A stretch of DNA of 64,000 nt. Origin: Candidatus Poribacteria bacterium (GTDB taxonomy: Bacteria > Poribacteria > WGA-4E > WGA-3G). The stretch spans positions 5,734,077-5,798,076 of the forward strand of contig OZ246979.1 of assembly GCA_965232545.1 (NCBI GenBank), read 5' to 3'. Within the stretch, counting starts at the first letter, position 1. Every line of letters starts with the position of its first letter. This document shows positions 3,694 through 43,300 of this stretch, in pieces. The notes beneath the pieces are model-generated. The model did not search any database and was not told the origin of the DNA. It was given only the letters and a program-made list of their open reading frames with translations. The position numbers and the translations under genes were made by a program.

Positions 3694-3821
3694 ATATCTG
3701 TAGGAAAAACCACCAAATCCGGACCTCTAAAGTTTGTAGTAGTGCGGTTCATCGCACGTTCTTGCTGACCGTCGACTGCTGATTGCTGACCGCCGATAGT
3801 TAATAACTTTCCATCTTTCTC

Positions 3822-3850
3822 TTGACTGTTTTTACCAAATACCCTATGAT
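3822..3850 (+). promoter_or_regulatory. sigma70-like promoter upstream of hflK (TTGACT-17-TATGAT)
   Basis: TTGACT at 3822-3827, a 17-nt spacer, then TATGAT at 3845-3850, about 185 nt upstream of the hflK start. Confidence 0.4.
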
Positions 3851-4034
3851 TGTAGACGTTTATTGTTACCTACATCCTTAAATGTCATAGGACCTACGCA
3901 CGCGCGCTTTTGTAGCACAAACTGTTAGTTTGTGTCGGTATCCGTATTAGTTTTTAGCCGCTCGTAGTCTAACAGATCGGATTACAGTCCAAACTGCGTA
4001 AGTCCTGTATCGGAGAAAAAAAGGAGAACTCTTC

Positions 4035-5003
4035 ATGCAAGACCTCCAGGACTTGATAACACAGCAACCCTACACGAATCTCATCACTCCCAAACGGATT
4101 CTGTTTGCGGTTCTCGGTGTGATCGTCTTAGCCTGCTTAGCGACAAGTTTTTATATGGTCGAAGCAGACGAAATCGCTGTCGTCCTGATGTTCGGTAAAT
4201 CTGTCCGACAAGCCGAACCGGGACTCCATTTCAAATTACCCCTCGGTATTGAGAGAGCCATTAGCGTGCCCGTCCGGAAAGTCTTCAAAGAGGAATTCGG
4301 TTTTCGGACGCTGAGAGCCGGGGTTCGGACGCAGTATGACACCCGCGATTATGCCGACGAGTCTTTATTACTAACCGGTGATCTAAGCATCGCCGATGTC
4401 GAGTGGGTGGTCCAGTATAAGGTTAAAGATCCGAAAAATTTTCTGTTTTCTGTCAGAAATCCAAGACAGGCTTTACGCGACCTCTCGGAATCCGTGATGA
4501 GCCGGATCATTGGCGACAGGACTGTCACTGAAGTGCTAACCGTCGGGCGTATTGAGATCGCCGCGGAGGTTGAAAAACATCTGCAAGAATTACTGGATCT
4601 CTACCAGACCGGATTAGATGTCGCAACGGTAACCTTGCAGGATGTGAATCCACCAGAAGCCGTGAAGTCCGCCTTTAACGCCGTCAATGAGGCGAAGCAG
4701 GAGAAAGAACGGTTAATCAACAATGCATGGCGCGATTACAACCAATCTGTCCCGAAAGCCAAAGGTGTGGCGATACAGCGGATTTCGGAAGCACAGGGTT
4801 ACGCGCTGAAACGCGTTAACGAGGCGCAAGGCGATGCAGATCGGTTCAAATCGATTCGCACGGAATATCAAAAAGCGAAAGAGGTTACCCGGCGCCGACT
4901 CTATCTCGAAGCGATGCGAGAGGTGTTACCGCAGGTGAAAGAGATTTATATCATTGACGGTAACGCCACCGCACCTATCCCACTTTTGCAACTCAAGGAA
5001 TAA
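4035..5003 (+). CDS. hflK: FtsH protease modulator HflK (SPFH/band-7)
   Basis: N-terminal transmembrane segment plus an SPFH domain, immediately followed by hflC. Confidence 0.85.
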   Translation: MQDLQDLITQQPYTNLITPKRILFAVLGVIVLACLATSFYMVEADEIAVVLMFGKSVRQAEPGLHFKLPLGIERAISVPVRKVFKEEFGFRTLRAGVRTQYDTRDYADESLLLTGDLSIADVEWVVQYKVKDPKNFLFSVRNPRQALRDLSESVMSRIIGDRTVTEVLTVGRIEIAAEVEKHLQELLDLYQTGLDVATVTLQDVNPPEAVKSAFNAVNEAKQEKERLINNAWRDYNQSVPKAKGVAIQRISEAQGYALKRVNEAQGDADRFKSIRTEYQKAKEVTRRRLYLEAMREVLPQVKEIYIIDGNATAPIPLLQLKE

Positions 5004-5017
5004 GAACCGTAAGGTAA

Positions 5018-5244
5018 GTTAGACGCGAAAACGAAGCCTGCAACAACGGCGCGGGGTTTTTGCTTGGGCGTTTCTTCAACTCGAACACAGAAAGCGTCAA
5101 ATCACACATCCCGTTACTTATCCGCAAGGTAAAATTAGGAATCGAGTTAGACGCGAAAACGAAGCCTGCAACAACGGCGCGGGCGACTCGAACACAGAAA
5201 GCGTCAAATCACACATCCCGTTACTTATCCGCAAGGTAAAATTA
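5018..5244 (+). repeat. Tandem duplicated leader module (about 100 nt x2) immediately upstream of the hflC start
   Basis: Unit 1 is 5018-5136, unit 2 is 5146-5244. Each ends in CCGCAAGGTAAAATTA. Unit 1 carries an extra 24-nt insert, GTTTTTGCTTGGGCGTTTCTTCAA. Same family as the 43113-43279 repeat. Confidence 0.8.
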
Positions 5245-5248
5245 AAAA

Positions 5249-6211
5249 ATGAAATCGAAAACAGTTCTTATACCCTTGATTGTTATTGCAGTTGTGGTGC
5301 TGCTAATTGTATCCGGTGTGTTCTATACCGTCCATGAAGGTGAACAGATCGTAATTACCGAATTCGGTCGCCCTATTGGTCAGCCCATTGTCACTGCGGG
5401 TTTGAAAATAAAAACACCCTTTATTCAGCAGGTACACCGCTTTGAAAAGCGCGTGCTTGAATGGGATGGATCCGCTAACCAGATCCCGACAAAAGACAAG
5501 CGATTCATCTGGTTGGATACCACAGCGCGGTGGCGTATTAAAGACGCTCTCAAATTCTATCAAGCACTCGGAACCGAACAGTTCGCACAATCTCGGTTGG
5601 ATGACATTATTGACTCCGCAGCGCGGGATTTAGTGACAGCACAACTCTTGATTGAAGTCGTGCGGGATTCAAATCGGGTGTTAAGTCTCGATCTGGAAGT
5701 CCTTGATGGTGAGGAGGGACAAACCGGTGAACCGTTGGAAGAGATTCAGATCGGTCGGGAACGGATTACACGTATGATCCTTGAGAAGGTCCAAGAGACC
5801 GTTCCACAATTCGGCATTGAACTCGTCGATGTTCAGATAAAACGGATTAACTATGTAGACGAGGTCCGCAAGAAAGTCTTTGACCAAATGATTTCGGAAC
5901 GGCAACGGATCTCTGAGAAATATAAATCCGAGGGGGCAGGCGAAGCCGCTGACATCATGGGACAGAAGCAGAAGGAGTTAGAGCGGATCCAATCTGAAGC
6001 GTATAAGGAAGCCGAGCAGCTTAAAGGTGACGCAGATGCGCAAGCCATTCAGATTTACGCCGAAGCACACGGTCAAGACCCAGAGTTTTACGCCTTTCTC
6101 CAGACGCTTGAAACCTATCGTCAGACGACCGGCGAGAGCACGAAACTCATCTTAACAACGGATAGCGACCTCTATCGGTATCTCAAAAGCAGTGAACCGC
6201 TCCGACGTTGA
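5249..6211 (+). CDS. hflC: FtsH protease modulator HflC
   Basis: N-terminal TM segment, band-7 domain, and the conserved hflK-hflC gene order. Confidence 0.85.
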   Translation: MKSKTVLIPLIVIAVVVLLIVSGVFYTVHEGEQIVITEFGRPIGQPIVTAGLKIKTPFIQQVHRFEKRVLEWDGSANQIPTKDKRFIWLDTTARWRIKDALKFYQALGTEQFAQSRLDDIIDSAARDLVTAQLLIEVVRDSNRVLSLDLEVLDGEEGQTGEPLEEIQIGRERITRMILEKVQETVPQFGIELVDVQIKRINYVDEVRKKVFDQMISERQRISEKYKSEGAGEAADIMGQKQKELERIQSEAYKEAEQLKGDADAQAIQIYAEAHGQDPEFYAFLQTLETYRQTTGESTKLILTTDSDLYRYLKSSEPLRR

Positions 6212-6334
6212 GCCTTGCTTCTATAACATGAGTACCGTATTTGTAGCGTAAACTGTTAGTTTGCGCCTGATGGGATACAATCAAAATAAGGTTTCAATAA
6301 ATGTTTCGGTAATTCCATGTTTCCCCCAGACCCG

Positions 6335-6397
6335 GGTAGGCGAGGTTTCTAACCTCGCCGGTGCAGAGTGTACAATTAATTCTAAAGTTTACCATAG
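6335..6397 (+). repeat. REP/terminator-like hairpin element (GGCGAGGTT-tct-AACCTCGCC plus CTCTTTAGAG...ATCTACCATAG tail)
   Basis: One of eight related copies (6335, 9475, 13487, 16104, 20636, 27169, 42949, 49228); five lie just downstream of plus-strand gene ends. Confidence 0.7.
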
Positions 6398-6743
6398 TTT
6401 GTAGCACCAGTCTTACTGTAGCGCAAACTGTTAGTTTGCGGCACCGGTCTGACGTGTGGACCAGACCAACATTTCAGTTGAGGTTTTCGGTTTAGCAAAA
6501 CTGTTCTCACTGTAGCGCAAACTGTTAGTTTGTAGCACCAGTCTTACTGTAGCGCAAACTGTTAGTTTGCGGCACCGGTTGGCACAAAAATTCGATATAA
6601 GCATACCAAAATCTGACGTGTGGACCAGACCAACATTTCAGTTGAGGTTTTCGGTTTAGCAAAACTGTTCTCACTGTAGCGCAAACTGTTAGTTTGTAGC
6701 ACCAGTCTCACTGTAGCGCAAACTGTTAGTTTGCGGCACGCGG
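6398..6743 (+). repeat. TGTAGC-box array; a 131-bp unit tandemly duplicated with a 164-bp period
   Basis: CTGACGTGTGGACCAGACC...TGTAGCGCAAACTGTTAGTTTGCGGCAC occurs at 6449-6579 and 6613-6743. At least eight TGTAGC boxes sit 17 to 20 nt apart. Each box contains the hairpin CAAACT-GTT-AGTTTG. Confidence 0.8.
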
Positions 6744-6753
6744 AGGTTGAAAC

Positions 6754-7284
6754 ATGAGACGAATTCGTTATTGCGTCGCTATGAGTCTCGACGGCTATAT
6801 CGCTGGACCCAACGGGGAATTCGATTGGATTGTCATGGATCCCGATATCGACTTCGCCGGAATGACCGAGCAGTTCGACACCTATCTACTCGGTAGACGG
6901 ACGTTTGAAGTCACGCGTGGGCACGAAGAGGCGGCGATGCCCGACGGAGAAACGTTCGTGATCTCGCGGACGTTACAACAGAGCGACCACGAGGATGTCA
7001 CAATCGTCGGTGAGAATTGGAAACAGGTCGTGCAGTCGCTCCGAGAGGAAGAAGGGAAAGACATCTGGTTGTTCGGTGGAGGCTCCCTATTTCGGAGTTT
7101 CGCCGAAGAGGGATTCGTTGACACGGTGGAGGTCGCTATCATCCCAATTGTGCTCGGTGGTGGTATTCCGCTCATTGAGGAACCGTCCGAGCAGATCCAA
7201 CTGACGTTAAAAGATCACACGGTGTACGGGAAAACGGGGACCGTTGGGTTGGTATACACCGTGAACAAGCCAAGCCAACCGTGA
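6754..7284 (+). CDS. Dihydrofolate reductase family protein (RibD C-terminal domain-like)
   Basis: 176 aa. Motifs CVAMSLDGYIAGPNGEFDW and LFGGGSLFRSF are typical of the RibD_C/YwjB family. Confidence 0.75.
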   Translation: MRRIRYCVAMSLDGYIAGPNGEFDWIVMDPDIDFAGMTEQFDTYLLGRRTFEVTRGHEEAAMPDGETFVISRTLQQSDHEDVTIVGENWKQVVQSLREEEGKDIWLFGGGSLFRSFAEEGFVDTVEVAIIPIVLGGGIPLIEEPSEQIQLTLKDHTVYGKTGTVGLVYTVNKPSQP

Positions 7285-7541
7285 GAAACCTCGCCTACCG
7301 TAACCTCTTTGTAGCACAACCTAAAAGTTTATGCTACAATAGATTTCCGCCGCGAATGTTTAAGTCGAACGCCTGTTAAAAAGGTTCCGTTATCTATAAA
7401 CTTGACGGATGGGTAATGAATTACCCTACTACAAACAATGGAATCTCACCAAGAGCGGAGGGCGTTTTGTTATCTGTTGTTCCTGAGATGTCTATCTATT
7501 TTCACAGCTGCGATAATACTTCAATACGAATGGTTTCACCT

Positions 7542-7572
7542 CCGATAACTGACAACTGATAACTGACAACTA
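7542..7572 (+). repeat. Heptamer direct-repeat array (CTGAYAA x4)
   Basis: CCGATAACTGACAACTGATAACTGACAACTA lies immediately upstream of the GTG start at 7579. Confidence 0.6.
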
Positions 7573-7578
7573 TTTTCC

Positions 7579-9468: not shown

Positions 9469-9676
9469 AACTTCCCCTGCTGGCGAGGTTTCCTAACCTC
9501 ACCTATGAAGTAAACGTAGGAAGGATCTCTGAATCCCGATTACTGATGCCTAATCCTGAAAATCCTGATTCAGACTATGAATACCTACGTTACCCGATTA
9601 AATTCCTAATCTTCATTAGGGGTGTTATGTTTATAAATAGATGGCAACTTGCGTTATTATAGGACTTGGAGGTGAT

Positions 9677-10219
9677 ATGAAAGTCTTGGTCGGTTCCGAA
9701 AATCCAGTGAAAATTCAGAGCGTTCGGGACGGTTTTCTAACATTTTTTGAACATGTAGAGGTCGAAGGTATAAATGTTGATACAGGTGTTGCTGACCAGC
9801 CTATGAATGATGAGACATTTGAGGGTGCCAAACATCGCGCCGAGAACGTTAAGCGAATAAACGATCAACAGAACCTCGGCGCGACGTTTTTTGTCGGAAT
9901 TGAGGGAGGCGTTCTTCAACTGCAGGAGAGATGGTTTAGTGTGAATGTCGTTTATATTTTAGATAACCACAATCGAGACAGTTTTGCCACAACAGGACTT
10001 TATGAATTGCCGGGTGCGATATCGGAAGAACTTCTGATTGGAAAAGGATTAGGACGTGCCATGGGTGAACTTGCCAATGATACCTACGCCGCACGCGAAC
10101 ATGGCACCGTTGGGTTTTTGACAAATGGTAAGATGGATAGGTTCCAAAATCAGGTCCAAGGCATAACTTTAGCATTAATCCCTTTTGTGAATGACACCCT
10201 TTATTTTCCTTCTTCCTAA
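9677..10219 (+). CDS. yjjX: Inosine/xanthosine triphosphatase (YjjX family non-canonical NTPase)
   Basis: MKVLVGSENPVKIQSV aligns with the E. coli YjjX N-terminus. GGAGGT RBS is 5 nt upstream of the ATG at 9677. The 12-codon extension to 9641 in the ORF track is unlikely. Confidence 0.7.
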   Translation: MKVLVGSENPVKIQSVRDGFLTFFEHVEVEGINVDTGVADQPMNDETFEGAKHRAENVKRINDQQNLGATFFVGIEGGVLQLQERWFSVNVVYILDNHNRDSFATTGLYELPGAISEELLIGKGLGRAMGELANDTYAAREHGTVGFLTNGKMDRFQNQVQGITLALIPFVNDTLYFPSS

Positions 10220-10260
10220 TGGGCAACACAGAAAATAGATTGGATTGAGCGATTAAAGAC

Positions 10261-10336
10261 AGAGATTCATCGCTGACTGCTAATTGCTAATCGCTAACCG
10301 CTAATTGCTATTCTTCTGACCGCCGACTGCCGACCG
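10261..10336 (+). repeat. Heptamer direct-repeat array (CTRAYYG x10)
   Basis: ctgactg ctaattg ctaatcg ctaaccg ctaattg ... ctgaccg ccgactg ccgaccg ctgaccg, lying between the convergent 3' ends of yjjX and the Gfo/Idh/MocA gene. Confidence 0.7.
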
Positions 10337-10351
10337 CTGACCGCCATATAT

Positions 10352-11431
10352 TCAATCGATTTCCCATTCCTGTAAACCGAGCGGCACAGGCTCAGGACGT
10401 TCCGTCGTGCTTTCGATGACGACGTGCTCACCCGTTTCAGAAGATTTGTCGAAAGCGCACATCACCTCAAGCACATGATATGCCAACGCGCCGTTCGCAC
10501 GGTGCTTGCGTCCCGAAAGGATAACCGACGCCATATCAATGACCCCAATCATCCGAGCATTGTTCGGGAAAGGGATTTCCTCGGCTTCCCAATCACCCCC
10601 TGCCGGACACACATTCACGGGACCCCCGAAACCGTTCGGATCAGGCACCGTCATTGAGCCGGTTTCACCGTAGATTTCGATGCACGGAAGACTGTGCCGC
10701 CACATGTCGAAACTCATAATCATTGTGATGATCGCACCGTTCTGGAATTCGATTGAGCCGGTGAGGTGAGTTGTAATTTTGACAGGGATACGTAAACCGC
10801 GCACGGCTTGACTCGTCGCGACACGTTCTTCAAAGGCTTTCGTCGTAATCGCGGCAACGCGTTTGACGGGACCGAGAATATTGACGAGGGCAGTCACATA
10901 ATAAGGCCCCATATCCAGCATCGGTCCGCCGCCGAGGTCGTAGTAAAAGGCCGGATTTGGATGCCAACTTTCGTGTCCGTGTCCGCACATAAAAGCGGTG
11001 CCAGCGATAGGTTTCCCAATTTTCCCCGCGTCCAGTGTTTGCCGAGAAGTCTGGATACCCGCACCGAGGAAAGTATCGGGTGCCGATCCGACGCGTAATC
11101 CCTTTTCAGCGGCGGTATCAATGAGTTGTTTTCCGCTCTCGGTGTCCACGCCGAGCGGTTTTTCGCTATAGACGTGTTTACCGGCTTCCAAGACTTGTAA
11201 GCCGACTTCGACGTGTGCCCGCGGGATGGTGAGATTCACAACGAGTTCGATCTCATCGTCTGCGAGCAATTCATCGACGCTGCATGCGTGGGAGTTGTAT
11301 TTTTCGGCTTGCGCCTGTGCGGATTCCATTCGGAGGTCGGCACAGGCTTTGATTTCTAAAATGTCGGTTTTTCGTGCCCCTTCAAAGTAGGCACTGCTGA
11401 TGGTTCCACAACCAATAATTCCAATTTTCAT
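10352..11431 (-). CDS. Gfo/Idh/MocA family NAD(P)-dependent oxidoreductase
   Basis: N-terminal Rossmann motif MKIGIIGCGTIS and the typical C-terminal alpha/beta domain. Confidence 0.8.
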   Translation of the reverse strand: MKIGIIGCGTISSAYFEGARKTDILEIKACADLRMESAQAQAEKYNSHACSVDELLADDEIELVVNLTIPRAHVEVGLQVLEAGKHVYSEKPLGVDTESGKQLIDTAAEKGLRVGSAPDTFLGAGIQTSRQTLDAGKIGKPIAGTAFMCGHGHESWHPNPAFYYDLGGGPMLDMGPYYVTALVNILGPVKRVAAITTKAFEERVATSQAVRGLRIPVKITTHLTGSIEFQNGAIITMIMSFDMWRHSLPCIEIYGETGSMTVPDPNGFGGPVNVCPAGGDWEAEEIPFPNNARMIGVIDMASVILSGRKHRANGALAYHVLEVMCAFDKSSETGEHVVIESTTERPEPVPLGLQEWEID

Positions 11432-11460
11432 ATTTTTAACTATGTGCTCCTGGACTGCCT

Positions 11461-13422
<1,962 letters not shown>

Positions 13423-13432
13423 TCAGTTTGCA

Positions 13433-13755
13433 TTTATGATGAATCCTAAAAATACATAGACATCTTAAAGAAACAACAGTCCTCCTCCGCTGGCGAGGTT
13501 TCTAACCTCGCCTCTTTAGAGTGTCTAAGTAATTCTAAAATCTACCATGTATATTTGCATTTACATAATTGTCTGTGCCACTGCCGCCTGTTATTCTGCA
13601 GCTTGGCTTTTCACATCGTATATCTTTCGCCTCAGTCGAAAAATCAATCTCTATTCCACCTAACATACTAACACAAGTTCGACATTTTCGCAAGTCGCAT
13701 GACAAGGGTAGCACGGGCATTTAATGTCTATTTATTTTTAGGATTCACCATAAAA
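13433..13755. mobile_element. MITE-like insertion with about 36-bp terminal inverted repeats in the thiC leader / glcB upstream region
   Basis: Left end TTTATGATGAATCCTAAAAATACATAGACATCTTAAA (13433-13470) matches the reverse complement of the right end at 13718-13755 at about 33 of 36 positions. The element carries a REP-like hairpin at 13487-13549. Confidence 0.55.
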
Positions 13756-13904
13756 AGCCCTGATTTGTCAAAAAAATGATTGACAAACTACCAATCTATT
13801 GCTATGATTAAATCACAATTGCGGCAAAATTTGTTGTCAGTGCAGTGAAGCATCGATTAACGAGGATCCAACACCTTACAGCATCTTGGAATGGAGAAAA
13901 GAGT

Positions 13905-16088: not shown

Positions 16089-16182
16089 GTCTGTCTCCAA
16101 CACGGGTAGGGGCGGTTTCTAACCGCTCCGAGTTAAATACATGCTTATTTGGACTCAGGTTCCTATAAGATGACGAGAACAT

Positions 16183-16225
16183 AAAAAAGGGAAGGGTGAA
16201 TAACGCATCCTTCCCTGTCTTTTTC
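16183..16225. terminator. Bidirectional intrinsic terminator between glcB and the amidohydrolase gene
   Basis: AAAAAA-GGGAAGG-gtgaataacgcat-CCTTCCC-TGTCTTTTT: a 7-bp GC stem flanked by an A-run and a T-run. Confidence 0.7.
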
Positions 16226-16235
16226 GGAATTACTT

Positions 16236-17093: not shown

Positions 17094-17295
17094 TGCGGTG
17101 CTCCTATATTTTATCTTTAATTGTATTTAAATTTGAAGGTATTTTAAGGCTTCTCCCCGAAATTGTCAAATATTTTCTTTTTCCAATTCAGGGCATTCCA
17201 CTCTTCAGTAGGAGCGAGTTTTGCTCGCGATTCTTTCACTGACGGGATACGTATCACCCGACCTGCCTGCTGATAGCTATTCTTCGTTCGTAGTA

Positions 17296-17343
17296 GTGCG
17301 ATTTGCGGCGTACTCGCCCAAATGCGACGTGCATTCATCGCAC
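17296..17343 (+). repeat. Conserved 31-nt box GCGGCGTACTCGCCCAAATGCGAMGTGCATT enclosed by a covarying 7-bp stem (copy 1 of 2)
   Basis: The box is identical at 45795-45825 apart from the M position. The closing stems differ between copies (GTGCGAT/ATCGCAC here, GCGCAAT/ATTGCGC there) yet stay complementary. Contains an internal GGCG-TACT-CGCC hairpin. Confidence 0.5.
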
Positions 17344-17348
17344 GTTCT

Positions 17349-17451
17349 TTCTGCCAACTGCCTCTTGACGGCTATTCCTCTGACCGCCGACCGCCGACCG
17401 CTGACCGCCGACCGCTGATTGCTGACTGCTGACTGCTAACCGCTGATAGCC
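17349..17451 (+). repeat. Heptamer direct-repeat array (GCYGAYY, about 14 units)
   Basis: gctgacc gccgacc gccgacc gctgacc gccgacc gctgatt gctgact gctgact gctaacc gctgata, upstream of ThuA copy 1. Confidence 0.75.
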
Positions 17452-17527
17452 ATTCACCAAAAGGGTTTGCCAAAAAGTCTGATGATGTGCTAAACTGATA
17501 GATATTTCCAATGGAGGCGTTAAGGAT

Positions 17528-18331
17528 ATGTCAGAAAAATCTCGAATTGTTATGGTGGCAGGAAGTGCGAGTCATGGCGGTGGCGCGCATGAGCATCCCG
17601 CGGGGTGTGCCTATCTCGCCGATCAGTTGAACAAGGCTGTGGACAGCGTGGAAGTCGTGGTCTCGCAGGGATGGCCCGAAGATCCAGCGACTTTCACCGA
17701 TACAGATGCCATTATTGTTTACTCGGACGGTGGTGCTGGGCATCTTAGCATTCCACACCTTGAACAGATCTCTGGACTGGTGGAACAGGGTATCGGACTT
17801 GGGATGTTACACTATGCTGTGGAAGTGCCGAAGGGGGAACCCGGAGATCGCTTCTTGGAGTGGATCGGCGGCTACTTTGAGACCCACCTTTCGGTCAATC
17901 CGTATTGGACAGCAACGTTTACCGGATTTCCTGAACACCCCACAACACGCGGAATAGAGCCGTTTTCATTGGAAGACGAGTGGTATTACCACATGCGGTT
18001 TCGTGAAAATATGCAGGGTGTGACACCTGTGTTGAGTGCCATCGCACCTGCTTCGACACTTGAGAGACCCGACGGACCGCATAGCGGGAACCCGCATGTG
18101 CGCGCATCGGTAGCCAACGGTGAGCCGCAGCATCTCGGGTGGTGTGTAGAGCGTCCGGATGGAGGACGTGGATTCGGATTTACCGGCGGGCATCTCCATC
18201 GGAATTGGGCGGATGACGACCTCCGTAAATTCATTCTCAACGCGATCGCATGGACAGCAAAGGTAGAAATTCCTGAAGGGGGTATCTCTACGCCAACCCC
18301 GACTGAGGCAGAATTGGAGGCATATCTGTAG
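17528..18331 (+). CDS. ThuA-like (trehalose utilisation) domain protein, copy 1
   Basis: 267 aa ThuA/class-I glutamine amidotransferase-like fold. About 80% aa identity to the copy at 19749. A 40-bp promoter-region block is shared. Confidence 0.75.
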   Translation: MSEKSRIVMVAGSASHGGGAHEHPAGCAYLADQLNKAVDSVEVVVSQGWPEDPATFTDTDAIIVYSDGGAGHLSIPHLEQISGLVEQGIGLGMLHYAVEVPKGEPGDRFLEWIGGYFETHLSVNPYWTATFTGFPEHPTTRGIEPFSLEDEWYYHMRFRENMQGVTPVLSAIAPASTLERPDGPHSGNPHVRASVANGEPQHLGWCVERPDGGRGFGFTGGHLHRNWADDDLRKFILNAIAWTAKVEIPEGGISTPTPTEAELEAYL

Positions 18332-18560
18332 TTTTAGAGTCAATAACCCCAAGCTAAAGCATGGGGCTTGTGCGAAGCGTATGCCAAACGTTCACTCCAC
18401 AAGTTAAACTATTTTCTACAGTAAAATATCGCAGTATCTGGGCGTGGCAGCCTAAACAATGTTTCGGATACTCCCCTCGTCTGACTCACTCTAAGATATT
18501 GTGATCTGTAAGGGGCAATATACAACCCGTAAGGGAGATTACAAACTATGTTTGTTCCGG
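18332..18560 (+). ncRNA. Candidate omega-RNA region for IsrB (placement by analogy with IscB/IsrB systems)
   Basis: IscB/IsrB guide RNAs are encoded immediately upstream of, and overlapping, the ORF 5' end. The region opens with the IS-end hairpin CCCCAAGCTAAAGCATGGGG at 18347-18366. Boundaries not determinable by eye. Confidence 0.3.
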
Positions 18561-19600
18561 TGACGAGTCAAACAGGTCAGAAGTTGATGCCTACGCGTGC
18601 TAACAAGGCGGGTGTGCTGATTAAGAAAGGTTTCGCCACGCCCTATTGGTCTAATGGTATATTCTGTATCCGGCTTAACTATGCTATCGAAGACGCATAC
18701 ACACAAGATATAGTCGTAGGTGTAGACCCCGGTAGTAAGAAGGAAGGCTTTACCGTCAAATCAGAATCTCATACCTATTTGAATGTGCAAGCCGATGCTC
18801 ATAGGGGTGTCGGTAAGAAAGTTGAAAAACGTCGAGAGTTGCGTAGGAGTAGACGCTCTCGTAAATGTCCTAATCGCAAGAATAGAACCAACCGTCTTGC
18901 GAATAGAGAGCGTATCCCCGTAGGCACGCGTGCAAGGTGGGATTGGAAACTTCGTATACTTGATTGGCTTTCAAAGTTGTATCCACTCACACACGTATGT
19001 GTTGAAGATATTAAGGCACGAACAATAGAACGTGCTAAGAAATGGAATACCTCTTTTAGTCCACTTGAAGTCGGTAAGCAGTGGTTTTATACCGAAATCC
19101 GAAAGCAGTGGCAGTTGCTAACACTTCAAGGGTGGGAAACCAAAGAGATACGCGATAGCTTAGGACTCAAGAAGTCGTCAGACAAGATGTCAGAAACTTT
19201 TGACGCACATTGCGTAGATTCCTGGTGCTTGGCGTATCACACGGTTGGTGGTTCGGCTGTCCCTGATAACACGGACTTAATGTGTGTCTCACCGATACCG
19301 ATAAAGCGAAGAGAGTTGCATAGGCAACAGGAAGCGAAGGGGGGTAAACGCTCACGGGTGGGCGGCACTGTATTAGGTCAAGGCTTAGTCAAAAATACAT
19401 TGATTAAGCATGTCAAATACGGTTTAACACGACTTGCTGGCGTTAACGCAAAGGGTTTGTTTTCAATATACAGTATGGGAAACAAACGATTAACCACAGG
19501 GGCGAAGCGGTCTGATTTTAAAGTGCTAACACGCCTCAACTTTTACTACAGGAGTGGGCATTCCTCCCCAACCTAAAGGATGGGGTCTCCTGCCCGAAGA
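18335..19600 (+). mobile_element. IS200/IS605-family non-autonomous element encoding IsrB (no tnpA)
   Basis: Bounded by related subterminal hairpins: CCCCAAGCTAAAGCATGGGG at 18347-18366 and CCCCAACCTAAAGGATGGGG at 19566-19585, which show a compensatory G:C to C:G swap. Lies between two diverged ThuA paralogs. Confidence 0.55.
18548..19576 (+). CDS. isrB: IsrB (HNH-less IscB; OMEGA RNA-guided nickase)
   Basis: 342 aa. N-terminal PLMP-like GQKLMPTRANKAGVLIKKG...IRLNY, RuvC-I VGVDPGS, Arg-rich bridge helix RRELRRSRRSRKCPNRKNR, RuvC-II VCVEDIK, RuvC-III FDAHCVDSW. Only about 45 aa separate RuvC-II and RuvC-III, with no Cys/His HNH insert. Aligns block-for-block with the OgeuIscB N-terminal half. 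Confidence 0.7.
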   Translation: MFVPVTSQTGQKLMPTRANKAGVLIKKGFATPYWSNGIFCIRLNYAIEDAYTQDIVVGVDPGSKKEGFTVKSESHTYLNVQADAHRGVGKKVEKRRELRRSRRSRKCPNRKNRTNRLANRERIPVGTRARWDWKLRILDWLSKLYPLTHVCVEDIKARTIERAKKWNTSFSPLEVGKQWFYTEIRKQWQLLTLQGWETKEIRDSLGLKKSSDKMSETFDAHCVDSWCLAYHTVGGSAVPDNTDLMCVSPIPIKRRELHRQQEAKGGKRSRVGGTVLGQGLVKNTLIKHVKYGLTRLAGVNAKGLFSIYSMGNKRLTTGAKRSDFKVLTRLNFYYRSGHSSPT

Positions 19601-19748
19601 TTGATGATTTGGGTAATTCTGCACGGCTATTAAGTTTTCCTGTCTGGAATCCATTTTGAATACGAAACATTGCTGCCGAGATCCAGGGGACCTTAAGGCA
19701 TAGGGTGTGCTAAACTGATAGATATTCCCAACGGAGGATCCAAAAAAT

Positions 19749-20552
19749 ATGGCAAAGAAATCTCGAATTGTTTTGGTGGCAGGAAGTGGAAGTCGTGGTA
19801 GTGGCGCGCATGAGCATCCCGCTGGGTGTGCCTTTCTTGCCGAGCAGTTAAACAAAAATGTCGACGGCGTAGCGGCAGAGGTCTCTCAGGGGTGGCCCGA
19901 AGATCCAGCGATTTTCACCGATACAGATGCTATTATTGTTTATTCAGGCGGTGGTGAAAAACATCTTAGCATCCCGCATCTTGATCAGATCAGTGAATTG
20001 ATGGCACAGGGCATAGGACTCGCAATGTTACACTTTGCAGTCGAGGTGCCGAAGGGCAAGCCGGGTGATTGTTTCTTAGACTGGATCGGTGGTTACTTCG
20101 AACCAGGCCTTTCGGTGAATCCTTATTGGATAGCAACGTTTACTGAATTTTCTGAACACCCGATAACACGTGGAATGGAACCATTTTCATTGAAAGATGA
20201 GTGGTATTATCACATGCGGTTTCGTGAAAATATGCGGGGCGTGACACCTGTGTTGAGTGCGATTGCACCTGCATCAACGCTCAAAAGACCCGATGGACCA
20301 TATAGCGGCAATCCACAAGTCCGTGCTTCGGTTGCAAAGGGCGAACCACAGCACTTGGGGTGGTGTGTCGAACGTCCCGATGGCGGGCGTGGGTTCGGAT
20401 GTACCGGTGGACATTACCATCAGAATTGGGGGAATGATCAATTCCGTAAGTTAATTCTCAACGGGATTGTCTGGACAGCAAAGATGGAAGTCCCTGAAGG
20501 AGGTATCTCCACGCCGACACCAACCGAAATGGAATTGGAGGCGTATCTGTAA
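19749..20552 (+). CDS. ThuA-like domain protein, copy 2
   Basis: Paralog of 17528-18331, about 80% nt and aa identity. Visibly lower third-position GC than copy 1. Confidence 0.75.
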   Translation: MAKKSRIVLVAGSGSRGSGAHEHPAGCAFLAEQLNKNVDGVAAEVSQGWPEDPAIFTDTDAIIVYSGGGEKHLSIPHLDQISELMAQGIGLAMLHFAVEVPKGKPGDCFLDWIGGYFEPGLSVNPYWIATFTEFSEHPITRGMEPFSLKDEWYYHMRFRENMRGVTPVLSAIAPASTLKRPDGPYSGNPQVRASVAKGEPQHLGWCVERPDGGRGFGCTGGHYHQNWGNDQFRKLILNGIVWTAKMEVPEGGISTPTPTEMELEAYL

Positions 20553-20747
20553 TTGCGGAATAATTCGGGCTATTCTGTGTGTGAGGTTGAATGAAATTTA
20601 AGTATTTAAAACGGTACTCCCGGTTTTCCCAGACTCGGTAGGGGCAGTGTTTTTGCTGGGGTGTTTCCCGCACCGGGCATTGTTAGAAGATTATCGAATT
20701 ATTTTTCAACCGTATCTAACCGCATCTGCTGGGTAAGGAGACGAAAC

Positions 20748-21602: not shown

Positions 21603-21644
21603 CAGGCGAATTATGTTTTTATCTCTGAAAGGCAAAGGAGGTTC

Positions 21645-21896
21645 ATGATGCGAAAAGTTGATTTGCAACAGCAGGCAGTTAGGTTAATCAGGCAGCTCTC
21701 TACCGAAAAACTCAAATCTGCTGTTGATTATCTCGTTTATCTTCAAGATGCAGAGACGCAAAGTGTCTCTTCTGATCACGAAATTCCATCACAAAATCTG
21801 GGAACGGCGATCCACGAAATGTTCAAACCTTTTGGCGGAGTGGAACTTGAGATACCCCCACGGGAACCGGCGCGAGAACCGCCTCGCTTTGACTAA
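21645..21896 (+). CDS. Putative antitoxin (VapB-like partner of the PIN toxin)
   Basis: 83 aa, 9 nt upstream of the PIN gene. Shares the motif LSTEKL..V.DYL with the 28454 ORF. Confidence 0.5.
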   Translation: MMRKVDLQQQAVRLIRQLSTEKLKSAVDYLVYLQDAETQSVSSDHEIPSQNLGTAIHEMFKPFGGVELEIPPREPAREPPRFD

Positions 21897-21905
21897 ATAC
21901 CAACC

Positions 21906-22328
21906 ATGATTGTTCTTGACACTAATGTCATCTCGGAACTCATGCGGGACAGTCCAGAACAGGCAGTTCTGGCTTGGTTTGGTACCCAGCCTGCCAGCAG
22001 CTTGTTCGTGACAACTGTCACCGAAGCGGAAATTTTGAGTGGTATAGCACTCTTACCTTATGGAAGGCGACGGCGCGGACTCTCGGAGGCTGCTGCTCGT
22101 GTATTTACTACGTTGTTCGCTGGACGCATCCTTGTTTTTGATAGTGATGCAGCGAACATTTACGCCGAGATTTTTGCTCAACGGCACGCAGCCGGTAGAC
22201 CGATAAGCCAAGCTGATTGTCAGATCGCCGCAATTGCTCGCTCCCGGGGGGCATCCCTCGCAACTCGAAATGTTACGGATTTTGAAGGGATTGAAGTTGA
22301 ACTTATCAATCCTTGGACACATCTCTAA
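21906..22328 (+). CDS. vapC: PIN-domain toxin VapC
   Basis: MIVLDTNVISEL N-terminus with the conserved Asp. 140 aa PIN fold. Confidence 0.75.
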   Translation: MIVLDTNVISELMRDSPEQAVLAWFGTQPASSLFVTTVTEAEILSGIALLPYGRRRRGLSEAAARVFTTLFAGRILVFDSDAANIYAEIFAQRHAAGRPISQADCQIAAIARSRGASLATRNVTDFEGIEVELINPWTHL

Positions 22329-22382
22329 TTGGTTCCTACAGCAAGGTACTGTCGTATTAATCGCTAAAGAGTCTAATAGACT

Positions 22383-23873: not shown

Positions 23874-23910
23874 GTTAACGCGTTGTAATTCTATCTCAAA
23901 GGAGATTGCT

Positions 23911-24666
23911 GTGACACAAAATATGGCAAATTTGCCGCTTACAGACATGACACATGGGCAATTTCGGGACTGGATCCGTCGCATTGTGCAACACTCACTA
24001 TTTGCGGATCGTGAGCGACTCCTTGCATTGCTTGCGACAAAGGCTGATAGGGAAACACTGGCAGAGGCGTTCCGTGAATTTTTTGAAGATTACTACTATG
24101 ATGTGGCGTTTGAATTGGATCGTCATGAGGCATGCCTACTTTCAATTTTTAATTCTTGTGATACTTATCCCGCTTTGAGATGTCGTGTTGCAATTGTTGA
24201 AGGCAAGCGAAAGGCATCGCCTATGGGACGTGAAGTTCGGCGGACGGGTTCGTTCCTCCCGAGTGACCCGGTACCAGAGATAAAAGTGTCTGCTTTATCG
24301 AATCGTGCCTTTCAATCGTTTCTTCACACGCTGGTGAACTGTGAATTTTTTGCAGCGCGTGATAGAATAGTTAGGTTAATGAGTCGAGAGTCGACTGCTG
24401 CTTCAAAATTGTCTGCACATGAGAGAGCGGATACTGAGGATAGGCATTTATGGGAGACGGTTTACGAGTTTTTCGTGTGCCATTTGGAATTGGAACAGTT
24501 TCTTGAAGATTATGAATACGATCCGGACGAAGGATTAGAGGTGCATCCAGAAGTTGCTGAAGAGTTGGAACAAAGCATCGCGGATCATAAATCTGAGGGA
24601 GTTAAAGGCAGACCCCTCCAGGAGGTGGCAAAAGAGTTTGGGGTCACGCTGAAATGTACACATTGA
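23911..24666 (+). CDS. Hypothetical protein (251 aa) translationally coupled to a RelE/ParE toxin; possible atypical large antitoxin
   Basis: Its TGA stop overlaps the ATG of the toxin gene (TGATG), followed by a TGA TGA TAA run. No recognisable domain. C-terminus is RPLQEVAKEFGVTLKCTH. Confidence 0.4.
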   Translation: MTQNMANLPLTDMTHGQFRDWIRRIVQHSLFADRERLLALLATKADRETLAEAFREFFEDYYYDVAFELDRHEACLLSIFNSCDTYPALRCRVAIVEGKRKASPMGREVRRTGSFLPSDPVPEIKVSALSNRAFQSFLHTLVNCEFFAARDRIVRLMSRESTAASKLSAHERADTEDRHLWETVYEFFVCHLELEQFLEDYEYDPDEGLEVHPEVAEELEQSIADHKSEGVKGRPLQEVAKEFGVTLKCTH

Positions 24667-24911
24667 TGATAAAATCCCGCGCCGAATCGGATTTGCGCCG
24701 TTTGAGCCCCACGATTTACTCGCTAATATTCAGCAAACTGGAGCGATTGTGCCAGATTTGCGATGACTACCCGCATAAGGCATTGAAAGGTGAGTATAGA
24801 GGGAAGTTCAGTTTATCAGTTGCTAAAGACTATCGAATTCTCTATACCTTCGATAGGCGTTTCCGAGAGATCGTTGTTCACCGAGTTGGGCACCGTAGCA
24901 AGGTCTATTAG
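24666..24911 (+). CDS. Type II toxin RelE/ParE family
   Basis: MIKSRAESDLRRL...YRILYTFDRRFREIVVHRVGHR, the classic RelE/ParE C-terminal motif. Confidence 0.75.
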   Translation: MIKSRAESDLRRLSPTIYSLIFSKLERLCQICDDYPHKALKGEYRGKFSLSVAKDYRILYTFDRRFREIVVHRVGHRSKVY

Positions 24912-25004
24912 ACGTGTATAAAAGTCCAGTGTCCGTATACTTAGAAAAAACATAAGGAGATATGCAGTGGGTAAATCACAATCTGTCCTAAAGGAGATGA
25001 AAAG

Positions 25005-25718
25005 TTGGAAAGCAGACTAATCGTTGCATTGGATACCGACGATGGTGAGGAGATTGACTGGCTATCGGGAACGCTTATGGATACAGTCGCTTGGTTTAAA
25101 ATCGGCTTTCAGGCGTTCAGTGCTCTTGGAATGGAGGCTTTTCCATGGTTTGAACAAAACAGACATAAAGTCTTTGTTGACCTGAAGTTCCACGACATCC
25201 CCAACACAGTCGCACGCGATGTCGGTATGATGACGAAACATGGCGCAAATATGATTAACATGCACGCCTCTGGTGGACTTATAATGATGAAGACGGCAAG
25301 AGCAAGGGCAGACGAAGTATCTGCCGAACGCGATATTCCGCCGCCAATACTACTCGGCGTGACCATTCTGACAAGCATTGAAGAAACTAACTTTCGGTTA
25401 AGTTTTGCCTCAGCACGGACGCTTTCGGAACAGGTTGTCTATCTCGCACAGTTGGCGCAGGAAGCCGGACTGGACGGCGTTGTCGCATCACCGTTAGAAA
25501 TCGAGCCGATACGAAAAGCGTGTGGCGACAATTTTGTAATCGTCACGCCGGGCATTCGACCGAAATGGGCAGAAACTGGCGATCAGCGGCGTATCACCAC
25601 GCCAGCGGAGGCGATTCAACGAGGCGCGGATTATATTGTTGTTGGCAGACCTATTATTGAGGCAGAGGATCCGTTGGCAGCCGCCGAAACGATCCTTGAG
25701 GAGATGAAAGGGGCATAA
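25005..25718 (+). CDS. pyrF: Orotidine 5'-phosphate decarboxylase
   Basis: Motifs FVDLKFHDIPNTV and VVGRPI. Confidence 0.85.
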   Translation: MESRLIVALDTDDGEEIDWLSGTLMDTVAWFKIGFQAFSALGMEAFPWFEQNRHKVFVDLKFHDIPNTVARDVGMMTKHGANMINMHASGGLIMMKTARARADEVSAERDIPPPILLGVTILTSIEETNFRLSFASARTLSEQVVYLAQLAQEAGLDGVVASPLEIEPIRKACGDNFVIVTPGIRPKWAETGDQRRITTPAEAIQRGADYIVVGRPIIEAEDPLAAAETILEEMKGA

Positions 25719-25722
25719 GACT

Positions 25723-27159
25723 ATGAACATTGTCTGTATCTGTTTAGACACGTTTCGTGCGGACATCATCGGTGAAGGCAAGAAGTATAGCCACGTACAA
25801 ACACCGAACCTCGATGCCTTGGCATCGGAGTCCGTCCGTTTCACACGCGCCTTTGGTGAAGGACAACCGACGCTTCAGATCCGTCGCGGCAATTTTACCG
25901 GGATGCGGAGTTTTCCGTGGAAGTATAATTTTGACCGACGCGGACATTGGCACCATGCCCCAGGTTGGCATAAGATTCCACCCGAACAGGATACAATCGC
26001 TGAAGTCTTGCTTGAACGCGGGTATCTCACTGCTCTGATTGCGGATACGTATCACATGTTCAAGCCGACGATGAATTTCTCGCGCGGGTTCGCACATTTC
26101 GATTTCATTCGCGGACAGGAATCGGATAACTGGCACAGTGGGGATCCGAGGTTGGTTGAAGACCAACTCCGAAAACACGTCCGTGAACCGCTCAACTGGC
26201 AACGGCATGCTGGACTCGTCAACTACCTCTTGTCGCAACGGCACCGCCAATCGGAGGATGACTATAGTTGCGCACGTGTCTTCCGCGCCGCCGCGGATTG
26301 GCTCCAAGACAATCACACCGTCGGTCCGTTTTTCTTATGGGTCGATAGTTTCGACCCACATGAGCCGTGGGATCCACCGAAGTCCTATGCTGATCTCTAT
26401 TTCTCTGACTATTCGGGTAAGGATTTCATTACGCCGGGCAACGCAAACGAAGGCGATGGACCTACAGAAGATGAACTCCGTCGGATTGAGGCACTCTATC
26501 TCGGTGAAGTGACGTTTGTTGATAAATGGGTCGGCGTGCTACTTGACAAAATAGAGCAGTTAAACATCCGAGACGAGACGCTGATTGTTTTAATGTCCGA
26601 CCACGGCACACAACTCCGCGATCACGGAAGTTTCGGAAAGGGACCAAATAAGTTGCATCCGTTTAATACGCAACTGAACCTGATGATGCGGCACCCAGAC
26701 GGACCACATGATAAAGACATTTCGGCGTTTGTGCAGAATCACGATCTGATGCCCACACTCCTAAATATGCTTGACATTCCGTGCGGTTGGACCGATGGTG
26801 AGGATATGTGGCAGCTCGTTAAACAGGAAAAAGCACTCCTCCGCGAACGGATTATCACTGGTTGGGCAGGGTTTATCACGGGGAATGCGCGCGGCCGCGT
26901 CAGTGTCCGCGATAATCACTGGAACTTCTGCACTTCAGTCGGCTACAAAGCTGGGAACGGCGATGAACTCTTTGATGTCCGAAATGATCCCGAAGAAAAA
27001 GTGAACATTGCGAGTGACCATCCAGCGATTATCGCAGAACGACGACGGGACATCGAGGCATTGATCGGACAACCCTTACCCGGACATTTCATTGAGGTCT
27101 GCGATCCAGAGCAGGCACCCATGACGCGATGGCTTGAAAAGAAATTGGCGGAGATGTAG
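25723..27159 (+). CDS. Sulfatase-like hydrolase (alkaline-phosphatase superfamily); no canonical C/S-x-P-x-R formylglycine motif
   Basis: CICLDTFRAD, SDHG and sulfatase-fold blocks. The expected CxPxR position reads GEGQPTLQIRRGNFTG. Confidence 0.6.
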   Translation: MNIVCICLDTFRADIIGEGKKYSHVQTPNLDALASESVRFTRAFGEGQPTLQIRRGNFTGMRSFPWKYNFDRRGHWHHAPGWHKIPPEQDTIAEVLLERGYLTALIADTYHMFKPTMNFSRGFAHFDFIRGQESDNWHSGDPRLVEDQLRKHVREPLNWQRHAGLVNYLLSQRHRQSEDDYSCARVFRAAADWLQDNHTVGPFFLWVDSFDPHEPWDPPKSYADLYFSDYSGKDFITPGNANEGDGPTEDELRRIEALYLGEVTFVDKWVGVLLDKIEQLNIRDETLIVLMSDHGTQLRDHGSFGKGPNKLHPFNTQLNLMMRHPDGPHDKDISAFVQNHDLMPTLLNMLDIPCGWTDGEDMWQLVKQEKALLRERIITGWAGFITGNARGRVSVRDNHWNFCTSVGYKAGNGDELFDVRNDPEEKVNIASDHPAIIAERRRDIEALIGQPLPGHFIEVCDPEQAPMTRWLEKKLAEM

Positions 27160-27168
27160 GAAGCAACA

Positions 27169-27263
27169 ACCTCGCCTCTTTCGTCCCCGCTGGCGAGGTG
27201 TTTTTGATAGGGTGTTTCTCTCGCCTCTTTAGAGCGTCCAAATAATTCTAATATCTACCATAG
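27169..27263 (+). repeat. REP/terminator-like hairpin element, expanded copy with a 21-nt box inserted in the loop
   Basis: GGCGAGG-TGTTTTTGATAGGGTGTTTCT-CTCGCC, then CTCTTTAGAGCGTCCAAATAATTCTAATATCTACCATAG. Confidence 0.65.
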
Positions 27264-27284
27264 TTGTCGGTGAGAGCCTCTTTA

Positions 27285-27433
27285 CTGATGGCTGAAAGCC
27301 GACTGCTGACCACTATTTGAGTACTTCCGAATCCCAAAGAAAGATTGTACCGTCGTCGCTACCGCTTGCGAGTGTGTTCCCATCTGGAGAGAACATCAAC
27401 ACACGAACAGCCGCTGATAACTGACTGCTATTC
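27285..27433 (+). repeat. Split heptamer array flanking a 93-bp relic of a WD40-repeat gene
   Basis: Heptamers at 27285-27321 and 27410-27433. The minus strand of 27320-27412 translates to AVRVLMFSPDGNTLASGSDDGTIFLWDSEVL with no stop. Confidence 0.55.
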
Positions 27434-43279: not shown

Positions 43280-43300
43280 AAAAACAGAGGAGGATCAAAC

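Follow-up and report, generated by a model that had tools for sequence, protein, structure and literature searches.

In the sponge-symbiont Candidatus Poribacteria, short arrays of tandemly repeated 7-nucleotide (nt) units lie between genes. Here, we describe these heptamer arrays in a window of 64,000 nt (GenBank assembly GCA_965232545.1, contig OZ246979.1, positions 5,734,077 to 5,798,076), whose own coordinates are used throughout. The part of the window that bears the arrays also carries genes for two SPFH/Band7 proteins, a DUF6785 membrane protein, a GFO/IDH/MocA oxidoreductase, a ThuA-family protein, a sulfatase, and an FNR-type oxidoreductase. The arrays are as follows:

3764-3799, + strand: heptamer array of 5 units, GCTGACC GTCGACT GCTGATT GCTGACC GCCGATA
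7542-7573, + strand: heptamer array of 4 units and a terminal CTAT, CCGATAA CTGACAA CTGATAA CTGACAA CTAT
9536-9556, + strand: heptamer array of 3 units, CCGATTA CTGATGC CTAATCC
10270-10347, + strand: heptamer array of 5 + 4 strict units, with linker GCTATTCTT and terminal CCAT
17350-17453, + strand: heptamer array of about 4 decayed units, 10 strict units (17380-17449), and terminal CCAT; the longest in the window
27285-27316, + strand: heptamer array of 4 units, CTGATGG CTGAAAG CCGACTG CTGACCA, then CTAT; 3' of the sulfatase gene
27414-27431, + strand: two-unit remnant, CTGATAA CTGACTG CTAT

The arrays are real, statistically solid, and far above chance. The original prediction had described degenerate heptamers in five regions, and their existence is borne out by direct reading of those regions, by Tandem Repeats Finder (TRF), and by a strict pattern requiring at least three consecutive units of C[TC][GA]A[CT]NN. 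With this pattern, six arrays were found in the window (starts at 3779, 7542, 9536, 10273, 10316, and 17380), compared with 0.04 expected from 100 first-order Markov simulations of the window. All six are intergenic, on the + strand, and within the first 28 kb; positions 28-64 kb contain none. TRF called period 7 at 7544-7571 as (GATAACTGACAACT)x2, where TAACTGA and CAACTGA alternate, again at 10269-10345, and at 17380-17446 with 9.6 copies. Of the five predicted regions, 27285-27433 is not a single array: about 100 nt of non-repeat DNA divide it into one array of 4 units and another of 2. The list was also incomplete, having overlooked the three units at 9536-9556.

The gene contexts that had been proposed, upstream of genes in most cases and between convergent 3' ends in one, were confirmed. 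The array at 3764-3799 lies 236 nt 5' of the SPFH/Band7 gene at 4035 and 23 nt upstream of a promoter-like TTGACT-17-TATGAT (3822-3850), the array at 17350-17453 precedes the conserved promoter-like TTGCCA-18-TAAACT (17467-17496) of the ThuA gene (17528) by 16 nt, and the remnant at 27414-27431 lies 15 nt upstream of a promoter-like TTGATT-17-TATAAT (27446-27474) that is followed by the FAD/NAD-binding FNR-type oxidoreductase gene at 27475. These three arrays end 15-23 nt 5' of sigma-70-like promoters, so the transcripts that start there would not include them. Other species have kept the ThuA and FNR-type promoters, whether the array is present or not. Only one of the six window arrays (7542) abuts a start codon, ending 6 nt before the GTG start of the DUF6785 membrane protein gene (7579), which has no obvious Shine-Dalgarno (SD) sequence. 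The array at 10270-10347 lies between the convergent genes 9641-10219 (+) and 10352-11431 (-), and 8 nt separate its CCAT end from the stop codon of the - strand gene, which encodes the GFO/IDH/MocA oxidoreductase.

A shared unit outside open reading frames

Using the ThuA-family protein of the window (17528-18331) as query, we retrieved 79 loci (best identity 97%), all but one labelled Poribacteria. This places the window in Poribacteria and rules out a cyanobacterial source, to which the likeness to the known heptamers of cyanobacteria had first pointed. Window and related loci together form a comparison set of 1.59 Mb, about 86% coding, to which the following counts refer. The set contains 49 strict arrays, none of which (0/49) lies inside an open reading frame (ORF). 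Among TRF arrays of at least 3 copies, period 7 is the commonest period, and the core C[CT][GA]A[CT] is found in 33 of 46 period-7 arrays, compared with 11% expected for random heptamers and with only 6 of 71 arrays of other periods. The unit consensus is C-Y-R-A-Y-N-R (e.g., CTGACCG), with the following composition:

Unit position 1: C 0.94
Unit position 2: T 0.70 / C 0.26
Unit position 3: G 0.68 / A 0.27
Unit position 4: A 0.93
Unit position 5: C 0.44 / T 0.46
Unit position 6: any base
Unit position 7: G 0.66 / A 0.27

The first and fourth positions (C1 and A4) are near-fixed, and the remaining positions differ almost only by transitions. The most frequent units are CTGACAA, CTGACTG, CTAATTG, CTGACCG, CTGATAA, and CCGACCG, and the published heptamer TAACTGA is present as such in one locus (L022 3975-4013, 5.6 copies). 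A terminal CCAT or CTAT is found in 22 of 48 arrays, and a CTAT-TCYT-CTGAC junction recurs within the long ones. Arrays reach about 14 units in the window and about 40 in L001, and 41 are on the + strand relative to ThuA, compared with 8 on the - strand. With their tandem structure, shared unit, and exclusion from ORFs, the arrays form one strictly intergenic family, whose units are both too degenerate and too alike across sites for ordinary independent microsatellites.

The arrays lie between convergent genes in 17 cases, between divergent genes in 11, and between tandem genes in 18, and 11 of the 18 in tandem contexts are antisense to both flanking genes. On the + strand, predicted RNA structure was no better than in shuffled sequences (z = +0.7 and +2.1); since the arrays fold no better than shuffles, a secondary-structure or G-quadruplex role was dropped. 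Searches of the whole window with Rfam at the gathering threshold and with tRNA scans gave no matches. An assembly artefact was ruled out, as arrays occur at the same sites in independent long-read chromosomes, short-read metagenome-assembled genomes (MAGs), and a single-cell genome.

Length variation and turnover between genomes

At the ThuA-upstream site, array length was taken in five genomes as the distance between two conserved anchors, after removal of an inserted hairpin element (described below). The distances were 61, 89, 103, 138, and 138 nt, all of which are 5 modulo 7, so that alleles are 4, 6, or 11 whole units apart. Comparing array length among relatives, a check suggested in the original prediction, thus gave differences in exact 7-nt multiples at this site. 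Two loci (L080 and L081) encode a ThuA protein identical to that of the window, yet carry only about 7-8 units, compared with about 14 in the window. An identical allele was found in three metagenome assemblies (L081, L202, and L203), indicating that change has not been rapid within that population, and a metagenome scan with the ThuA promoter returned two contigs, both identical to L081.

Turnover between species is extensive, and at each orthologous site, only a minority of species carries an array. At the site 3' of the GFO/IDH/MocA gene (window 10270-10347), arrays were also found in L001, L003, L007, L008, L009, L017, L019, L020, L022, and L026, with the orientation inverted in L027, L030, and L040. 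At the site 3' of the sulfatase gene (window 27285-27316), the array is inverted in L008, L010, L026, and L081, and the site orthologous to 27414-27431 holds 4-6 units in L003, L007, L037, and L078. Array density was 7.5 per 100 kb in species with a ThuA identity of at least 90% and 0 in 345 kb where identity was 80% or less. Therefore, the lineage specificity that had been suggested holds: arrays are abundant in close relatives, with none in the 345 kb from the most distant Poribacteria sampled. An enrichment at synteny breakpoints was also considered, but BLAST blocks end at almost every intergenic region, so this comparison has no resolving power.

Heptamers of this type also occur on viral contigs. 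A scan of IMG/VR returned at least 120 stretches of at least 5 CTGAYNR units, while the chance expectation is far below one by a back-of-the-envelope estimate (about 6x10^10 bases assumed). Among the matches listed, the contigs range from 35 to 68% G+C, and the arrays are depleted from long open frames. Five contigs of about 60% G+C (L105, L122, L126, L138, and L149) carry 6-18 CTGAY arrays within 7-14 kb, on both strands, a density far above that of the Poribacteria loci. A link between array orientation and the replication strand or primase CTG sites was rejected: 35 of 51 arrays in the Poribacteria loci are on the G-rich strand, counts that are pseudo-replicated by synteny, but the independent viral contigs show no such bias (132 arrays on the G-rich strand and 180 on the C-rich strand, among the matches listed).

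GTAG-headed hairpins and other features of the window

The original prediction had noted a motif, TCATCGCACGTTCTT, shared before the arrays at 3764 and 17349. The motif is present at both places (3749-3763 and 17335-17349), but it is not free-standing: it is the 3' half of a longer, discrete element of 28-32 nt, here called 'E' (GTTT-GTAG-TAGTGCGATTCATCGCAC-GTTCTT), with a GTAG head and a short hairpin. The elements of this kind beside the arrays, which resemble repetitive extragenic palindromes (REPs), are as follows:

3732-3763, + strand: REP-like element 'E' in its minimal form, GTTT-GTAG-TAGTGCGgTTCATCGCAC-GTTCTT, with a 7-bp hairpin; abuts the array
9516-9535, + strand: REP-B-like GTAGGAAGGATCTCTGAATC; leads directly into the array at 9536-9556
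17208-17233, + strand: REP-like element 'A', GTAG-GAGCGAG-TTTT-GCTCGC-GATTC; conserved in L001, L002, L080, and L081
17286-17349, + strand: REP-like element 'E' with a nested insertion; its loop holds a 31-nt mini-insertion (17304-17334, TGCGGCGTACTCGCCCAAATGCGACGTGCAT)

In the minimal form, a hairpin was flagged at 3742-3757. GTAG-tagged REPs are defined by an unpaired GTAG tag at one end of a 20-40-nt palindrome (PMC3733652), and element 'E' reads GTAG-TAGTGCGAT-TC-ATCGCAC, with an unpaired GTAG at the palindrome end. About 20 E-type copies were found in the loci, all extragenic, with dispersed copies in L004, L007, L008, L013, L040, L046, and L078 and inverted doublets in L013, L026, and L040. 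The 7.7 kb of intergenic DNA in the window contain 19 perfect hairpins with a GTAG head, and the 56 kb of coding DNA contain 4. With other 4-mers as control heads, 2-7 intergenic hairpins were counted, the most for TAGG, which overlaps GTAGG. Element 'E' is therefore like GTAG-tagged REPs, bacterial interspersed mosaic elements (BIMEs), and REP doublets forming hairpins (REPINs) (Di Nocera 2013, PMC3733652; Bertels & Rainey 2011, PMC3116915), with which it shares an unpaired GTAG followed by a 6-8-bp palindrome, extragenic location, multiple copies, inverted doublets, and mosaics. Unlike the palindromic GTAG-tagged REPs, the heptamer arrays are direct repeats, and no gene for a REP-associated tyrosine transposase (RAYT; Y1_Tnp) was found among about 40 window ORFs scanned with Pfam or in the annotation of L080. 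Several sequence families of GTAG hairpins co-occur in the window. To our knowledge, BIMEs have not been described with heptamer arrays as the motif between REPs.

Upstream of ThuA, the related genomes preserve different states of one insertion site:

ThuA-upstream site in L002 and L080: empty, array continuous
ThuA-upstream site in L081: plain 28-nt REP
ThuA-upstream site in the window and L003: REP with the 31-nt mini-element nested in its loop
ThuA-upstream site in L001: doubly nested REP, its first nested element holding a second

At this site, the REP was inserted into an array. Of 48 arrays, 15 have a GTAG in the 60 nt upstream and 7 in the 60 nt downstream; for GTAGGAG, the corresponding counts are 7 and 1. 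L001 640-1160 is a mosaic of REPs and arrays. A strict, hairpin-based association was found for only 5 of 48 arrays, a low score because REP stems are imperfect.

The 31-nt mini-element TGCGGCGTACTCGCCCAAATGCGACGTGCAT is found again at 45794-45824, in the loop of another hairpin. In all, 17 copies were found in the sequence examined, in loops of varied REP types (L001, L003, L026, L050, L081, and others); the mini-element itself holds a second element (CGGTGAATGCCACACGCGCATTCA...) in L001 and L081. In Nostoc punctiforme, Elhai and colleagues (2008) reportedly found small dispersed repeats (SDRs) of about 20-30 nt nested in the loops of hairpin repeats, polymorphic in presence or absence, in a genome said to be rich in heptamers. 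The mini-element recalls this nesting; the sequences are unrelated.

Other hairpins occur in the window. A dense cluster of GTAG-headed hairpins (CTGTAGCGCAAACTGTTAGTTTGC) occupies 6212-6753, with further occurrences at 3904-3930 and 29800-29830; the cluster contains two tandem 37-nt pairs and a duplicated block of about 170 nt and looks like a BIME/REPIN-type mosaic. The hairpin GCTGGCGAGGTTTCTAACCTCGCC (variant GGTAGGCGAGG...) lies just 3' of genes at 9480-9505, 13489-13512, 16100-16125, 27183-27200, 42954-42977, 43020-43045, and 49240-49265 and is either a REP family or a common terminator-like element. Another GTAG-tagged hairpin family, GTAGGGGCAGGTCTYGTGCCTGCCC, has two copies (44521-44545 and 44574-44598) between convergent genes.

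The ThuA gene at 17528-18331 has a paralogue at 19749-20552, with about 80% DNA identity and a near-identical promoter and leader (GTGCTAAACTGATAGATATT...GGAGG); heptamer arrays precede only the first. Between the two lies a unit (18339-19576) in which a 342-aa ORF with a Pfam RRXRR domain of the IscB/IsrB type (18548-19576) is preceded by a match to the HEARO RNA (IscB omega-RNA) that is weak but full-length (19.9 bits, E = 0.027, below the gathering score). This unit is absent between the two paralogues in L001-L008, and it is therefore probably a mobile OMEGA-type insertion. A full-length TnpB of 369 aa with OrfB_IS605 and Cas12f1-like TNB domains is encoded at 54913-56022 (+) and a truncated one of 205 aa at 50967-51584 (-); no adjacent TnpA was seen for either copy, and the 413-aa ORF beside the truncated copy (49443-50684) has no Pfam match. 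Tandem units of 85-100 nt, which start with AGCCTGCAACA(A/G)CGGCGC and end with CCGCAAGGTA(A/T)AATTA(A)AAA, were found at 5040-5248 and 43113-43283, the pair at 43113 being 98% identical. They directly precede the ORFs at 5249 (the second SPFH/Band7 gene) and 43301, have no credible Rfam match, and are possibly promoter/leader modules that were duplicated. Accessory genes (742-3693, 21906-22328, 24654-24911, and 28791-29138) in the array-rich first 28-30 kb encode a type I restriction HsdR, PIN-domain proteins, and a ParE toxin (the last by the annotation of L080), and the array-free 30-64 kb holds mostly housekeeping genes and genes for WD40/TPR repeat proteins.

Known repeat classes and possible origins of the arrays

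The short tandemly repeated repetitive (STRR) heptamers of Calothrix and Anabaena are tandem 7-nt units in intergenic DNA, lineage-specific and present in about 100 copies per genome. Their units CCCCAGT, TTGGTCA, and CAACAGT were described in heterocystous cyanobacteria; the Poribacteria unit differs from them in sequence, and its host is not a heterocystous cyanobacterium. Among long simple sequence repeats (SSRs, sensu Mrazek 2007) of bacteria, heptamers are reportedly the most over-represented class, an excess that has been attributed to polymerase slippage. PMC4692102 and PMC4679880 cite both the three heptamers of Calothrix and the excess of heptamers in long SSRs. The original prediction did not recognize the arrays as a described repeat class, and as a claim of novelty this is refuted, since heptanucleotide classes have been published for Calothrix, Nostoc, Xanthomonas (GGGANTN), Beggiatoaceae, Cyanobacteria, and Bacteroidetes (PMC4679880; PMC4692102).

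The closest likeness is to the TAACTGA repeats (MacGregor 2015, PMC4679880), which are contiguous 7-nt direct repeats in intergenic DNA, there with dozens to hundreds per genome, known from Beggiatoaceae, 15 Cyanobacteria, and 5 Bacteroidetes, and with indels in 7-nt steps between Cyanothece strains. Both share a CTGA core, the absence of predicted secondary structure, stops in the forward frames, strain-specific gain and loss, and 7-nt indels. However, the Beggiatoaceae repeats consist of the exact unit only, in 2-6 copies, mostly forward and directly upstream of start codons (PMC4679880), whereas the Poribacteria unit is degenerate (CTGACCG, CCGACCG, CTAATTG, CTGATAA), with 1 of 6 arrays at a start codon. 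The narrow TAACTGA pattern (exact unit, forward, near a start codon) was thus rejected, as other units are commoner and only one of the six window arrays fits. The contexts instead resemble those of Microcystis, where TAACTGA is mixed with other heptamers in all gene contexts (PMC4679880). In Xanthomonas and Nostoc PCC 7120, the heptamers GGGAATC and GGGGAYT (Rehm et al. 2015, PMC4692102) likewise have a degenerate unit with fixed and free positions; (GGGANTN)n arrays number about 180 intergenic arrays per genome, and such heptamers occupy the same intergenic sites in relatives with varying length and sequence (PMC4692102). Unlike these G-rich, G-quadruplex-capable units (PMC4692102), CYRAYNR has no G-runs and no predicted structure.

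We assign the Poribacteria arrays to the known class of intergenic heptanucleotide repeats (STRR, long SSR, TAACTGA, and Xanthomonas/Nostoc heptamers), as a new host lineage and a unit variant. They consist of at least three head-to-tail 7-nt copies, occur in non-coding DNA only, and differ in length by whole units at the same site. As to array number, the sequence covered gave 6 in the first 28 kb of the window, 0 in 28-64 kb, and 49 in the 1.59 Mb of syntenic loci. Earlier reported hosts of CTGA-type heptamers are Cyanobacteria, Beggiatoaceae, Thiocystis, and a few Bacteroidetes; Poribacteria are not among the hosts reported for TAACTGA repeats (PMC4679880), and the literature searched yielded no report of heptamer repeats in this phylum. 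Two other systems with repeated short units were rejected: (i) a CRISPR array, which has 23-50-nt repeats with unique spacers, whereas the units here are 7 nt, contiguous, and without spacers, and (ii) heptameric activator sites of the SARP type, which occur at 11-nt intervals overlapping the -35 element, whereas the arrays have contiguous 7-nt spacing and lie upstream of it.

The arrays are probably a genome-wide family of slippage-driven intergenic heptamer repeats of the STRR/long SSR/TAACTGA type, tolerated in non-coding DNA. A seed heptamer in non-coding DNA would grow and shrink in whole units by replication slippage or unequal exchange, its units would then decay through transitions, and the array would in the end be lost. 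Arrays would persist only where tolerated, that is, in the DNA between genes, 5' of -35 elements, and past stop codons, and ORFs would exclude them because a 7-nt period shifts the frame and forward CTGA/CTAA units give TGA/TAA stops in three frames. The common unit at many sites suggests dispersal from shared seeds rather than independent birth, and the recurrent order of GTAG-headed REP hairpin, array, and terminal CYAT suggests that REP elements supply or carry the seeds, which may have been provided by, or co-mobilized with, REP-type mini-elements. We infer slippage as the cause, seeding linked to REPs, and an absence of function; the data do not require a function in gene expression, and the arrays appear to sit where insertions are tolerated. 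The recombination scar that had been suggested is unsupported and leaves the exact 7-nt length steps without account.

Several points weigh against the slippage explanation. Pure slippage does not account for the near-invariant C1 and A4 beside neighbours that are 26-46% substituted, or for the rarity of transversions, a pattern that might stem from selection for a binding motif. Also without account are the CYAT that recurs at array ends and the bias toward one strand (41:8 relative to ThuA, and 6/6 on the + strand in the window). With one allele shared by three metagenome samples, the arrays are not hypermutable over short periods. The evidence itself has limits: genes in the loci were called crudely, as greedy longest ORFs; array density is overestimated because the loci are syntenic with a region picked for its arrays; and counts are pseudo-replicated because many arrays are orthologous across loci. 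The last point also applies to the REPs, whose tendency to be found directly 5' of same-strand arrays is suggestive only. The invariant C1 and A4, the CYAT end, and the strand bias leave some room for a binding-site role and rather less for generation linked to REPs.

A binding-site role would make the arrays a multi-site platform for a sequence-specific DNA-binding protein or a single-strand RNA/DNA-binding protein, with a regulatory, nucleoid-architectural, or promoter-insulating effect, and this we regard as possible but unlikely. The fixed C1 and A4, with other positions varying within the purine or pyrimidine class, would suit such a platform, as would the unstructured single strands, the placement of three arrays 15-23 nt 5' of -35 hexamers and of one against a start codon, and the recurrence of arrays at the same intergenic sites across several species. 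In Nostoc and Escherichia coli reporters, deletion of a heptamer repeat changed the behaviour of the recO promoter (bioRxiv 10.1101/2022.06.06.494920), and S1, Csp, or CsrA-type binders were proposed for TAACTGA by MacGregor (PMC4679880). However, orientation and distance to genes are inconsistent, most species, among them close relatives that share the promoters, lack an array at the corresponding site, copy number differs 2-fold between genomes with an identical flanking protein, and no candidate binding protein was identified. The regulatory or architectural role raised in the original prediction is similarly unsupported, given the mixture of convergent, divergent, and tandem contexts and the flips of orientation between species at the same site.

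Generation linked to REPs could take two forms. In the first, the arrays would be footprints of mobile elements, either accumulated 7-bp target duplications or by-products of HUH/RAYT-type nicking beside REPs, and not products of slippage. REP-like elements and nested mini-insertions in or beside arrays with known empty-site alleles, the polar order from REP to array with its common CYAT terminus, and genes of the IS200/IS605 superfamily in the window (TnpB at 54913-56022 and 50967-51584 and the RRXRR/IscB-like ORF at 18548-19576) are consistent with this, but the RAYT/Y1 transposase is missing from the ORFs and annotation scanned for it, REP insertions are not flanked by a clean 7-bp duplication, and runs of at least 10 near-identical units together with block duplications (L001 880-930) fit slippage or unequal exchange better, so that we consider it improbable. 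In the second, to which we likewise give little weight, the arrays would be the 3' appendage of a composite element, in which a GTAG-REP hairpin would be followed by a short GATTC or GTTCTT tail, then by (CYRAYNR)n, and last by CYAT. HUH/RAYT-like nicking and copying of a single strand would generate and disperse such elements. If true, this would explain the shared CTGAY unit at independent sites, in distant phyla, and on viral contigs, as well as the common terminus and the strand bias.

A role of the RNA in translation appears very unlikely, whether as initiation free of an SD sequence, as proposed for the Beggiatoaceae TAACTGA, or as a three-frame stop barrier that halts upstream ribosomes. 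About two thirds of the units have TGA or TAA at positions 2-4, at least 3 units shut all three forward frames, a property noted for the forward orientation in PMC4679880, and the array at 7542-7573 stands 6 nt before a GTG start without an obvious SD sequence. In contrast, position 2 is C in 26% of the units, and CGA and CAA are not stops; the 11 of 18 tandem-context arrays that are antisense to both neighbours and the arrays at 3764, 17350, and 27414, which lie 5' of predicted promoters and outside the downstream mRNA, do not suit such a role, and 1 of 6 window arrays is at a start codon. Phase-variation (contingency) loci, in which copy number would switch expression of the adjacent gene, are highly improbable despite the whole-unit length polymorphism between related genomes and the promoter-proximal SSRs studied experimentally in Moraxella and Haemophilus (PMC4679880), as the arrays lie outside ORFs and -35/-10 spacers (those at 3764, 17350, and 27414 end 15-23 nt 5' of the -35, with only the array at 7542, at a start codon, excepted), one is between convergent 3' ends, an identical allele occurs in three independent metagenome samples, and the neighbouring genes are of metabolic housekeeping types and not surface antigens.

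With these arrays, CTGA-type heptamer repeats are extended to Candidatus Poribacteria, an uncultivated phylum of sponge symbionts, and the occurrence of the CTGA unit on viral contigs of widely varied G+C bears on how such repeats spread between phyla. Chromosome-level Poribacteria MAGs offer a natural time series of array birth, growth in 7-nt steps, decay by transitions, and loss, together with the entry of REPs and mini-insertions.

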